A stretch of 64,000 nt of DNA, taken from NCBI GenBank assembly GCA_051362555.1, contig CM120641.1:15810001-15874000 (forward strand), given 5' to 3'. Shown in pieces: positions 619 through 9,600 of this stretch (its first letter is position 1; the number at the start of each line of letters is the position of its first letter). Under the pieces are notes generated by a model that saw only the letters and a list, made by a program, of their open reading frames with translations, ran no database searches and was not told the DNA's origin. Origin of the DNA: Lingula anatina (lineage: Eukaryota; Animalia; Brachiopoda). The translations under genes were made by a program, and so were the position numbers.

Positions 619-3600
619 GACCAAGAGTGAGCTAAAAGCCAGCAAAACATCACTAAATAAGACAGACACAGCAGAAGCAAGGGAATTTTCATCAAAGACA
701 AGTTTACATTCAAGTAAGTCCAATTGAAAAAATCTATTTTATAAAATGTTTAAATACTTCCGTAATTAGTTCCTTATTTTATCAGCCATATTACCAGCAT
801 TTTATCACATTTTGCTGCCAAAATTTTGGGTATGTTTTCTTAAACTTTTTACAGTTTACAAATTAACATGAGTATTTTCAACTTGATTTAGCATTTTGCT
901 CAAAAACAGAAGTGAATATCTCAAAACTGTCAGTGGAATGCTCTGTTGCTCCTTATTTGCTTACTCTTTTGTGTGACAAGTATTTTGTTAAGCTGCTTTG
1001 TATTTTCTGCCATGATTTACCAATTAGCCATTAAATCCCCATATGGATCAGGCAACACAATATTCCCTATTACAGAATTTATCTGCTAGTAATAAATTCC
1101 TTCAAGTTAACAGGTGATACTTGTATTATAGATCCCAGAGAAAGAGTCTCTTCAGTGTCCAGTAGGAAGAGAGAGAGGGTGTCTTCAGTGGGCAGCAGGA
1201 AGAAAGGGGACCTGGATGAGGGGGATATCCCACTGGAGGTGGAAGATTACGCTGCCCTGAAACGCCAGGTGTCACAGTATGATGAAGGAGTGTGTACACC
1301 GCCTCCTGCCCTCAGGAAGAAACAAGTGGAGGCAGAAAAACTAATTAAAGCAGAGACAGCAGAGACTGGCAGTGTGAGATATCTGTCCTCATATCTATTC
1401 ATTATTAACGAGGATGTTTCATAAGTAAACAGTCTGACGATTTTCATTAGAGAGTTTCCGGTGCAGGTGGGATACGACGGCTAGATTGTTACGTATGTGC
1501 AAATGTATCTAGTAACGCGCTACTCTTTTCTCGTTCCGGTAAAGTTCCAGAATGCTGGCGCTTCCCGCCCCGCTCATTCCAATATAATTAACAATATACG
1601 GCCCCTTAGCCATGTATTTCCAAGGTGAAGATTCTTTTTTATGAAAAAGGAGACAAATATTACCCAAAAGAGCAATTTTTCCCGACAAATATGGCGGTTA
1701 GTAAGATCAACCCCCGACTACGTGCCTGATAAACCAAAATTAGCGCCTCCTCTCTCTTAAAAAGTCGAAATTTGCATGAACATACACTTGAACTATGGTA
1801 AAAAAAGTATATAAGGCATATAAATTAGCAAACATAACCTTTAATAACTATTTTCAATAATCTTCCTCACTGGCTAGATAGGAGCGCTTGTATTCCGCAG
1901 ACTAGATTGGACGACGGTATATGAATGCGGTGAACGTCACAAGTGCGCACAAACCGATGACGTATTAATCTAGCCGGCATATCTCACCGGCAACGGAAAC
2001 TCTCTATTAGTGTAATTGGTGATTTGATAATTTTGATACAAAGTATTTTACGATTGAACTAAATTGATTTTTTTTTGTATGCTTGAATATTTTTCCTCAT
2101 TTCCAGGTGAAGCTTTCTGTGTTTATAATCTACATGAAAGCTATAGGGCTTTGGGTAACACTGGCTGTTGTATTTCTCTATATCCTCAACAATGCAGCTG
2201 CCATATACTCCAATGTATGGCTCAGTGAGTGGAGTAATGATGAGGCCATTAATGGAACAACTGATACAGCCCAGAGAGATCTACGGTTGGGTGTCTATGG
2301 AGCTTTAGGTCTTGCTCAAGGTATGGTTTGTGTTTTTTCAAGATAAGACTTGTTTTTAGTAAAGGACTATTGGTTTGGAATGATTCAGTTAACAATTTTT
2401 AAAAATTAAGAAAAAAGAAATTAATGTCAGGCATCTTGATTGATGCAGGGTTTGTAATCTGCAATAGTCCTTTTCCAAATTTTATATTTTGTCTCAGCAG
2501 TATAATGTTTAAGTTGTTCATATTTAGATAACAAGCCAAACGTAGCTTGTATGAAATGTAATAATGATATTCCTCCTGTTGTGGCGCTGTGACCCCATCA
2601 ACTGGCTGTGAGTTAATGAACTGATTCAAAATACTTACATACTGATAGATGTGTGAAGAGGTGTTGCCTTCACCCAGAGCATGACTACCTCAGATTGCTT
2701 AATTTTTTTATTTTTTATTTTTTTTTTGGCTTGACTGCCGTAATTTTTCTTATGGAAGATGTAGTCACCAATCCCACCACTAGGAGGTGCAGTCAGAGCA
2801 TTAAAATGAAATTCATTGTTCGAGTAACTTTTTGAATATTTATTTCCTGTTGATGAGGAATGGTTATTCATTAAATATTTAGTCAAGAGCTTTGTTTTAT
2901 ATAATTTGTCATATATAATGATATATTACTGATAATTTGTCATCATCAGTAATATATCATCAGTAATATATAATGATATATTACTGATGATGACATATGA
3001 TTCTAGTTATAATCAGTATGAACAATTTTCTTGCATAATTCGGGTTTTGGAATTCCTTTTACAGGTTTTAATCGGTAGATAGTTCTGCTTTTAGTAAAAT
3101 TTAAAAAATGGAGATGTGCAGTTCCACGCAAAAGGTGACAACTTGGTTGGAAGCTTGAACTGTCATAGAATATCATTTCAGGTTTTCTAGAGATAGCCAG
3201 TGCTTTCTCTATGGCAATGGGAGGTTTAAAGGCTTCCAGACATTGGCACGCCAAACTGGCAGATAATCTCCTTCATGTACCAATGATATTTTATGATAGC
3301 ACACCCGTGGGTAGACTGTTAAATAGGTTCTCTGGGGACATGAACACTATAGACCAAGTCATGCCTTTTACTGTGAGATCCATGCTCAATACTATCATCA
3401 TAACCTGTGGGACCTTTGCTGTGATAGGATCTACAACTCCCACTGTAATAACTGTGATACCTGCACTAGCTGTGATATATTTCTTTGTACAGGTACTTGA
3501 TGTTTACCAAAGTACTTTCCTTAAGCTTTCTTTTAATGTTCTGTCAAAGCTAAACAGGAAGACTGGGTAAAGGGGACCCCATGATCAGTGTTTATTTGCA

Positions 3601-6600: not shown

Positions 6601-9600
6601 TATCAAATGTGTCATATCAGGTATGTTTGGTAAGAGGAGATGGTATGGATGTTTAATGTCTCTGGTTATTCTCTCTCAGTCTAGCATGATATATGTAACA
6701 CTTGGTTAAAGTGGGGTTTGATTAGAATGAAAAGAATGAATGAATGAAGGTTTTTAGTCATCTAGTAGAATTAAGATGAGAATTATTTATTACCCTGATA
6801 CTGAAACCTTCATTAGCAAATGACCAATTTTTGTGGTCTTAACCTGGGACCTTTCCCTAGGTAAATGACCTTGATGGACTGGTCACTTAACATATGTTAT
6901 ACGGCTAGGAATAGTCTCTAGTGCCATGTCATGGCAACGTCAGTAACGGTATGACAATAGGTCATGACTATAAGTTTATAATTCTATGACATGCCCACCA
7001 AGTTGACTTGTGGTACTGCCAAGTTTGAAGGTATGAAATTGTATATCACACTGACATATTTCTACTGTAACCAATATCTGTAGTGAAAAACTCAAGGAGG
7101 AGGAAGTTTGGCAGGCAATACATTAAGGTGTTTAAGAAGAGCCACTCTTTTATATTACTAGCTATTGGTTCATTTGTGAACTTTACTTTCTCTTCAAGCA
7201 TATAGGCCTGCCTAACTGCTACTCATGATTTTGAGCATTACAAATATACCACGTCTAACAACCTACCAATATCCCTCTCAACCATGCAGATATATTTTGT
7301 GCCTCACCATACCCAAACATATATATATATATATATATATACACACATACACACACACACACACGCACACGCACACACGTTTTGATCTGAAATCAAATTT
7401 TAATATAGGAGCTACCTTAATTGCATTCTGGTTTCCGTGTATCCTTTTCATGATATATTGAATCATGGGCCAAAGGTGTATTCCTCTCACCATCTTAGTT
7501 TCAATCACCGCCCAATTGAATTTTACTCTTGACAGAGTAATACTTTAATTATATCATGATGATTGTTGCATTCATGTGGAAAACAGTTATATTAACTCAG
7601 ATGTACCAGTTTTTGCCCCTTTATCCTGAAAATAAATATGATAGTGTGTAGGTATATATAAGGATGCTCTAACAGAAAAAAATGCTGTGCACAGTAATTG
7701 ATTACAGGTGTTGAACTGTTTCTAGGCAAAAACGCTCCAAGTCTCCTAGGCTGTGGAGGCCCAAATTTTTGAGTGCCAAAACAAAATATATCTGTATGGT
7801 CATATAGAAAGTCAGCATGTCAAAATGGCACTACAACTGTCAAATTGTTTTGAAATAGTGATATAGCTGTCAGGTAGTTAGGCAGGCCTGGTATAGATCT
7901 AACTACATTTAAGTCTTTCTAATTTAAGAATTGTAATACTTCAAACTTTTTCCCCTCACTTATTGCCTTCATTTGCTCTGTAGGTTTACTTGTGTACTTG
8001 GGATCCTATTGTCTGGCCAGGGGCAGCATTAAAGCATGTACACTCCTGCATTTTGGCTTCTTAGATAACATCCTGAAGCTTCCTAGTATCTTCTTTGACC
8101 GAACGCCTTTGGGGAGAATCATGAATCGATTTTCCAAGGACATAGATACAATAGATGTTGTTCTGGTGGAAAAAATACGCATCTGTCTAGTCTGTGTGCT
8201 CAGTGTACTCAGCACCATACTGGTTATTAGCTACAGCACACCACTGTTCTTAGTGGTTTTTCTTCCTCTTGGAGTATTCTATACATTTATACAGGTAATG
8301 GAGGTTTGATTTTATTTCTTTTTGATACAGTTTTGGGTTTACTGTTGAAAACTACTACATTTAACTTGTAACACAAGATTGAGGATTTTTCTGTTTAAAA
8401 TTCATGAGAAAGGTTTTGAATGAAATGTTAAAAATATAGGTGGAATGTAAGGGAGGGAAAGATATAATTACCTTCTTGTTCAGCATTCTCTGTTACCGAT
8501 TAAATGAAGAGTCAGATTTGCTACAGCTCTGAATATAACCAAGTAACATGAAAAAATATTATGTTCAATTGACTCTACAAATTCTTACCAGATGGCCAAA
8601 AAAGATATTCTTTAATTATGTCTGAAATTTTAAAAAGGATTCAGTTAAAGTAAAGCTATGAAGAAATCCAGTGCCTGATATCTCTCTCTTGTGATTATTC
8701 AGTTACATGTAGTTAAGTCATTTAATTCGTATGACTATAAATAATGATTATCGCATGTGCATGCGGGGAAAATGGTAAGAAAAGTTTGTGGAAGGATTAG
8801 AAAGATTAAATGAAAAGTTTGCCTGTTTGCAGGCTGTTATGCTTGTTAAGTTTTAAAACTGCTCTTCCTTTAATTACATTTATTTCAATAGTGATGCAGG
8901 TTTTCAGTTTCTTTTTTGTGAAAATTATGTAACATAATCATTGAAATGGTTTATGTTTTTGGCTCCCATTTTTCTTGATAGAAGCTTAATGCACAGTGAC
9001 TTTTTGGTCCCTATTGAGCACAGTCATTTTTTGCTGAACTGTCTTCCCTGATTTGATCATGGGATTTAGCCTTTCTAATGGAATCCCATGGCACTCCTTT
9101 TCCCCTCTCCATAAGCTGGAGATACTGTTTTATTCATCACACTATGTCATCCCAATTATGGTAGGCTTCCTTACCATCTTGTTCAATAAGATACCTTCAC
9201 CTTCCTAAGAGTGTGCGTGTGCACATGCGTGTGTGCATGCATGTGAATGTGTTACTAGACTAAGTATGCTATTCCTGGGGTATTGTTGATACTTGGCATG
9301 CACTTCAGTGTGGTTTAGTGCCTACCAAATGGTGCATCTGACAAAAACTGTCACAGAGGCTTTGAAAAGAGGGCTGTTAATCAAATCAATTCGCAAAAAA
9401 CATACCTGTTCATTAAATTTGTCGTTGTGTCATAATGGCAGTGTTAAAGTGAGTGTGACTGTATATATGATGACGAATGAAGATGTGGCCCAAACCAAAC
9501 ATGATTATCTACCTATTTCAGTGTTCTGTTAAAATGGTACAAAATCTAAACAATATCATATTTTCAAATTTATTTCTTTAAAGATGCATGCATTGAAATA

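Follow-up and report, generated by a model that had tools for sequence, protein, structure and literature searches.

In a 64,000-nt stretch of the genome of the brachiopod Lingula anatina (GenBank assembly GCA_051362555.1, contig CM120641.1, positions 15,810,001 to 15,874,000, forward strand; hereafter the window, to which coordinates refer), we find a gene for an MRP1-like pump that carries five tandem, intact copies of one exon. We consider it likely that the copies are spliced singly into the mRNA, so that the resulting pumps would have differently lined cargo pockets, and that one of them, copy A, predates the split between brachiopods, molluscs and annelids. The cassette is real and of a known kind, here in a phylum for which we found no report. 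A first-pass annotation of this DNA had proposed a mutually exclusive cassette in the second transmembrane domain (TMD2) of a non-insect MRP1-like gene, and the reading frames, a splice junction seen in RNA reads and one-copy gene models in a chiton, a snail and a clam support that proposal.

Five exon copies and the frame rule

The cassette lies on the plus strand between two constitutive exons, the upstream exon U (2107..2320), which covers transmembrane helix (TM) 12 and the start of the TM13 region, and the downstream exon Dn (11263..11462). Between them stand copies A (3182..3492), B (3926..4239), C (4914..5224), D (5663..5973) and E (7984..8294), each of 311 nt except for B, which has one extra codon and thus 314 nt. 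All five have the positions, AG and GT ends and stop-free frames originally ascribed to them. Enumeration of the 32 subsets of the five exons between U and Dn left five that are free of stops, exactly the single-exon choices, whereas the use of none or of two to five copies led to a stop codon in 27/27 other subsets; the earlier argument that the frame permits one copy only is therefore borne out. A tblastn search returned no sixth copy within the cassette, and elsewhere in the window just one copy occurs, that of a neighbouring single-copy paralog on the minus strand.

The copies are 47-60% identical in DNA and share 35-59 of 103 residues in protein, and 5/5 score above the cut-off for Pfam ABC_membrane. 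Synonymous sites are nearly saturated, with a proportion of synonymous differences (pS) of 0.58-0.84, and the proportion of nonsynonymous differences (pN), at 0.29-0.46, is lower in all 15 pairs (paralog exon included). Frames and splice sites that remain intact at such divergence argue for selection on each copy. A figure for the ratio of nonsynonymous to synonymous rates (dN/dS) is unreliable at this degree of synonymous saturation.

The intervening introns are 433-2010 nt long and every donor is of the ordinary GT type, so that steric exclusion and minor-spliceosome incompatibility, for which the criteria are well established, are unlikely reasons for exclusive use. Among the five acceptors, that of exon A is the weakest (pyrimidine share 0.50); we rejected this as a trait peculiar to A, because the constitutive exon of the paralog has the same pyrimidine share, 0.50. 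The local RNA fold around exon A is unremarkable (z -1.6).

The swapped segment and the cargo pocket

A gap-free alignment places the exon on residues 1035-1130 of human MRP1 and on bovine MRP1 up to residue 1129. In the accessible text of a bovine MRP1 study, Q1088, M1092, S1096 and N1099 are described as contacting vincristine, estrone sulfate, verapamil, oxidized glutathione (GSSG) or cyclic dinucleotide (PMC12647609). All four positions fall inside this exon, in TM14, so that the Lingula exon covers the same residues as in the mammalian MRP1/ABCC1 pocket while its copies carry five differing sets of them: F/S/T/I in A, D/D/V/E in B, which gives this copy an acidic TM14 face, R/A/T/N in C, D/A/C/S in D and E/I/C/S in E. 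The intracellular loop CL6 is conserved among the copies, as had been noted before, and the four TM14 pocket sites are variable. This pattern suggests that the isoforms may differ in cargo preference.

RNA reads and relatives with similar cassettes

Four of nine same-species raw-read runs were placed, on the region 2000-4630 only and with 6-21 reads per run. Reads link U to the end of the previous exon at 1373 and to exon D. The latter link is seen in two of the four runs, from 4 reads each in X4 and X9 whose loose ends at 2321 match the opening bases of D; this shows U-to-D splicing that skips A-C and makes D the sole copy with a splice junction in the reads. Exon A is covered by reads in 4/4 runs and exon B in 3/4, neither with a joint at the listing threshold; in X4, the bins past the A and B donors have zero depth, fitting splicing. 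At six sites in B, reads of study P3 depart from the sequence of the window; four of these differences are silent and two exchange Val and Ile.

Isoform models of Liolophura (chiton), Littorina (periwinkle) and Mya (clam) vary solely inside this exon and contain one copy each, and the six variants of Mya, A-type included, are used singly. One copy per mRNA is made likely by the U-to-D junction that passes over A-C, by the stops that all other subsets meet and by the models of these relatives. We also fetched 80 related loci, by their constitutive Dn exon and not by exon A, and 10 of them hold full-length-type cassettes of two to four copies, with one A-type copy apiece. The A-type copy stands first after U in 6/6 multi-copy loci holding U and precedes the other copy in three further loci; in the clam-like locus L051 it follows a non-A copy. 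Those of their copies that were checked are open in frame and bounded by AG and GT; in L038 the end of the contig truncates the first copy. In a tree of constitutive exons, L051 groups with Mya, and L019 and a tight group of seven loci fall near Capitella, with weak support.

Ancestry of copy A

A first tree comprised 47 named rows and 103 columns, with rows not selected by likeness to A. In this tree, A groups with Mya X5 and two exons of Elysia (sea slug) at 96/98, C with the paralog exon at 99/94 and D with E at 91/94, and no Lingula copy groups with insect rows. In a second tree of 53 rows, for which 15 long-branched or redundant rows were dropped and 21 exons of 11 loci were added (L006 and L038, both near-duplicates, were left out), the A clade contains 13 rows at 98/97, with copy A beside exons from the clam, two sea slugs and annelid-like loci; C and the paralog exon again join at 98/91, and D and E at 97/83. 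Copy A bears 7/8 of the residues that mark the A clade, such as F at the 1089 site, which is present in 13/13 rows of the clade versus 1/40 others. A constraint that unites the five Lingula copies is rejected (p 0.0015), a result that could stem from the pairing of C with the paralog, as is one that unites 16 Capitella-side copies (p 0.0013), a group named after the tree had been seen. Joint lineage-by-lineage origins are rejected under LG+G4, with approximately unbiased (AU) p-values, p-AU, of 2e-6 and 1e-5. Judged from these alignments, shared ancestry of copy A with molluscs and annelid-like animals is likely.

A word-based search with exon A yielded no A-type relative, with five of its seven matches among 198 candidates being ABCC10. 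A full scan found the A-type motif in 47 of the best 150, compared with 7 of the best 150 for a first, stricter motif; because its relatives were picked by likeness to A, they were kept out of the main tree tests. The motif match of L079, in which the copy is contiguous with its neighbours, was taken as chance and left out of the tree, and a protein Atlas search gave just generic ABC membrane clusters.

Among the related loci, L044 carries between U and Dn a single copy, of the A-type (1597-1902), and is possibly a duplicate fixed on A, which would mirror the paralog in the window. L002 carries five short (~74-residue) arthropod-type copies upstream of Dn (255-3486), and its constitutive exons group with insects. 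L042, L049, L050 and L070 lie on one contig that contains at least four tandem MRP genes, each single-copy for the exon, a case of diversification by whole-gene duplication instead of exon copies.

Predicted long-range helices and intron motifs

We searched 15 intron pairs for long-range helices. The predicted selector after exon A, a 24-nt arm (3543..3566) that begins 50 nt past A, pairs with a predicted docking site (11033..11056) ~200 nt before the downstream acceptor; the score of 52 was reached by 0/200 shuffles and 0/41 real-sequence controls, and the extended duplex has -53 kcal/mol. After exon D, a predicted selector with an 18-nt arm (6368..6385) pairs with a predicted docking site at 9486..9503 (score 41). 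Two candidate B selectors (4247-4266 and 4344-4358, together 4247..4358) are both complementary to one candidate docking site (9817..9836), a pairing that is within chance and not significant. In a gapped scan with 11 shuffles only, A passed and B and C did not. A single docking site contested by several selectors was not found among these pairs; the arms of A, B and D pair with three separate, nested sites. The best partner of each docking site is confined to one intron, and the runner-up for the A site pairs much more weakly (-27 vs -39 kcal/mol). Two other candidates, an upstream pairing of 2411-2439 with 4298-4326 and a pairing of 3155-3170 over the A acceptor with 10312-10327, were rejected as being at chance level (55/200 and 42/200 shuffles, respectively).

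In the related locus L027, a 25-nt long-range helix (0/50 shuffles) connects the intron that follows the A-type copy with the last intron; its sequence is unrelated to that of the Lingula A helix and its placement is alike. As a whole, the Lingula helices are predicted and not generally conserved among relatives.

The hexamer TGCATG occurs 14 times in the cassette introns vs 3.9 expected (0/300 shuffles), and the top three non-microsatellite hexamers all contain GCATG. Across 11 related loci, two of which look like one place, it occurs 52 times vs 30.6 expected, and its reverse complement 22 times. We take UGCAUG to be an Rbfox-type element.

Discussion

We propose a model whereby D would be a common choice and whereby, when A or D is chosen, the intron stretch after that exon would pair with its own site in the last intron. 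Such pairing would loop out the later copies and bring the donor of the chosen copy near the downstream acceptor, and the UGCAUG elements would likely tune the choice. Any mRNA with zero or several copies would meet an early stop and be cleared by nonsense-mediated decay, which we infer to act as a backstop. In this form the model covers the choice of A and D and the looping out of the copies after the chosen one. As to history, an A/non-A pair would have been present in an early lophotrochozoan, the non-A member would then have duplicated within lineages (giving B, D and E here), and the adjacent whole-gene duplicate would have retained only a C-like copy. In its widest form, which we favour with less assurance, the lophotrochozoan pocket-exon switch would have one origin: an A-type copy with a fixed, distinctive TM14 face would have persisted in brachiopods, molluscs and annelids next to a partner that duplicates freely, providing a conserved second pump, and Lingula would select its copies by nested RNA helices. 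A single origin of this kind would date back more than 500 million years.

Several of our results weigh against parts of this model. With regard to splicing, the U-to-D junction is the one junction seen, within the region and at the read numbers given above, and some reads of X7 and X9, reads on B among them, extend into introns. With regard to selection by helices, the D score is borderline, being reached by 6/100 shuffles (and 0/14 real-sequence controls); the B helices are not above chance, with 38/200 shuffles reaching their score; no helix was found for C, whose best score 199/200 shuffles reach; and the reverse complement of TGCATG is likewise enriched in the cassette introns (8 vs 2.8 expected). 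Of nine related loci in which an A-type copy is followed by another copy, L027 alone shows a clear non-repeat helix in this place; the result for L071 is borderline, the pairing in L047 and L038 runs through a simple repeat, and five have no helix. The junction and the intron reads, together with the lack of read evidence for C and E from a placement that ends at 4630, would also fit a gene in which one or two copies are in use (D, perhaps A and B) and the others survive as intact remnants or appear in unspliced RNA only. We regard this as quite improbable, given that all five copies are stop-free with exact splice sites although silent sites are nearly saturated, that the differences in B are silent or conservative, and that the clam models employ six variants singly, with the A-type among them. 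That the copies are an assembly artefact or fragments of separate genes can practically be dismissed: at 47-60% DNA identity they do not represent a duplicate made in assembly, U is joined to D over A-C in the reads, and like cassettes are present in 10/80 related loci.

The history that we propose for copy A competes with a scenario in which the cassette is real, each phylum duplicated the exon separately and the A-type likeness reflects convergent selection for one pocket type. An independent origin per lineage is what the accessible part of PMC7434440 states, and insects, C. elegans (with an exon of 156 nt, according to the part of PMC4165533 available) and fish ABCC3 represent separate origins in this very region. 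Our own tests leave it some room as well, in that holding together the six Lingula copies (paralog included; p-AU 0.073, 0.075) or the six Mya variants (p-AU 0.055) is singly not rejected, and the joint tests used the simpler LG+G4 model and were perhaps driven partly by non-A rows. Moreover, the alignment has 103 columns only and bootstraps are unsettled, the raw identity of A to one fish ABCC3 exon equals that to Mya X5 (47/103 each), and the Capitella-side grouping, at 90 in the Shimodaira-Hasegawa-like approximate likelihood-ratio test (SH-aLRT), has fish ABCC3 intruding and includes seven loci that are close kin. Convergence on one pocket type is nevertheless difficult to reconcile with a 13-row A clade whose marking residues include sites beyond the four named pocket positions, with the first place of the A-type in every multi-copy locus holding U, and with the rejection of the joint constraints and of a common Capitella-side group. 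We therefore consider separate duplication in each phylum unlikely and prefer descent of copy A from a shared ancestor.

Yue et al. 2017 (RNA Biol 14:1399) reportedly deals with MRP exon clusters and their RNA pairings. The accessible sections of PMC6071210 describe multiple independent duplications across phyla, docking sites located downstream and several intronic stems in Hymenoptera, and those of PMC7434440 describe the exon-cluster event as independent in helminths, annelids and molluscs. Clusters outside insects had thus already been reported (PMC7434440, PMC6071210), and the novelty that the first-pass annotation saw in a non-insect cassette does not hold. As far as these sources go, the Lingula cassette shares with other metazoan MRP1 clusters the tandem, homologous exons of equal length in TMD2 and, as far as the predictions for A and D hold, long-range intron pairing to sites downstream; it differs from them in belonging to a brachiopod, in one copy that is apparently cross-phylum as opposed to the independent origins cited, and in predicted docking sites that are separate and nested, where the others have a single one for which selectors compete.

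In Drosophila, mosquito and termite, MRP exon 8 swaps the same TM13-CL6-TM14 segment of TMD2 with one copy per isoform, as described in the available portions of PMC6071210 and PMC9741552. Both give eight variants for D. melanogaster, not seven as previously annotated, and the latter calls the fly and worm events unrelated. The insect unit comprises ~74 residues, corresponding to the first ~74 of the 103 in Lingula, and in termite the isoforms diverge at 1037-1111 and have the tail in common. Because insects swap only these ~74 residues, we place their cluster as a separate origin. The alternative of convergence or shared ancestry, which the first-pass annotation had put to an exon tree, thus receives a divided answer: convergence with insects, with which no Lingula copy groups, and probable shared ancestry of copy A with molluscs and annelid-like animals. 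The mrp-1 gene of C. elegans has four 156-nt exons, 13A-D, in the text accessible to us (PMC4165533); their length is a multiple of three (3n), and they are without the frameshift safeguard of the Lingula copies. Our literature search, with most subscription journals outside its reach, returned no paper on how Lingula MRP is spliced, on orthology of the copies between phyla or on a cassette in fish ABCC3.

The same exon is swapped in teleost ABCC3, where the Pimephales isoform pairs P0296/P0300, P0298/P0301 and P0293/P0299 differ only at 1034-1133; the idea that vertebrates have one such exon accordingly fails for fish ABCC3. Three other fish ABCC3 models (P0009, P0011, P0139) concatenate two copies. 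Concatenated copies in several database proteins are also a matter for annotation.

MRP1 exon clusters have been cited as a case in which alternative splicing evolved convergently; should A be orthologous between the three phyla, part of this pattern would reflect shared descent. A pocket variant kept for so long would, if our reading is true, point to a specific conserved cargo, which a comparison of isoforms differing in a single exon could reveal. The natural TM14 variants, five in number, would further offer a ready series for testing how four pocket residues set MRP1 specificity, and the paralog with its one retained copy would illustrate how splice variants become fixed through gene duplication.

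Host gene, paralog and surroundings

The host gene is an MRP1-like ABCC gene: its best matches among solved structures are ABCC2, MRP1 and ABCC3, its named relatives are MRP1-like, and exons for TMD2 and the second nucleotide-binding domain (NBD2) are present. Its 5' half falls beyond the window, and the exons downstream of Dn, at 11696..18145 on the plus strand, encode what remains of TMD2, followed by NBD2, up to the stop codon. Database searches surfaced no match that is the protein of the host gene itself.

Tail-to-tail with it lies the MRP1 paralog (21634..36375, minus strand), which matches Lingula anatina XP_013411190.1; this protein matches the paralog exons lengthwise, and its copy of the exon is identical to the single, C-like copy of the paralog at 25371-25061 (minus strand). 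The introns that flank this copy are short, and the other copies leave no trace in them. C and the paralog exon are 60% identical in DNA, and the flanking constitutive exons of the two genes 66% and 60%; this equal divergence fits a whole-gene duplication after which the paralog retained one copy. The NBD2 exons of the two genes are more similar, with 96% DNA identity between 17558-17752 and 22249-22055 and 92% between 16547-16705 and 23052-22894, and with the start of the intron shared as well, versus only 60-73% for the TMD2 exons, a pattern that resembles recent gene conversion.

One intron of the host gene contains a direct duplication of ~1.7 kb with 159-nt tandem units (~12500-15990), the start of which resembles ~9870-10060 in the last cassette intron. 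Upstream of the paralog lies a gene for Integrator complex subunit 1 (~61650-39530, minus strand), in which Pfam PF12432 and PF22927 were matched in 3/6 open reading frames tried, and within this gene a 146-nt satellite spans 52832-54838 with 13.8 copies and 92% matches.

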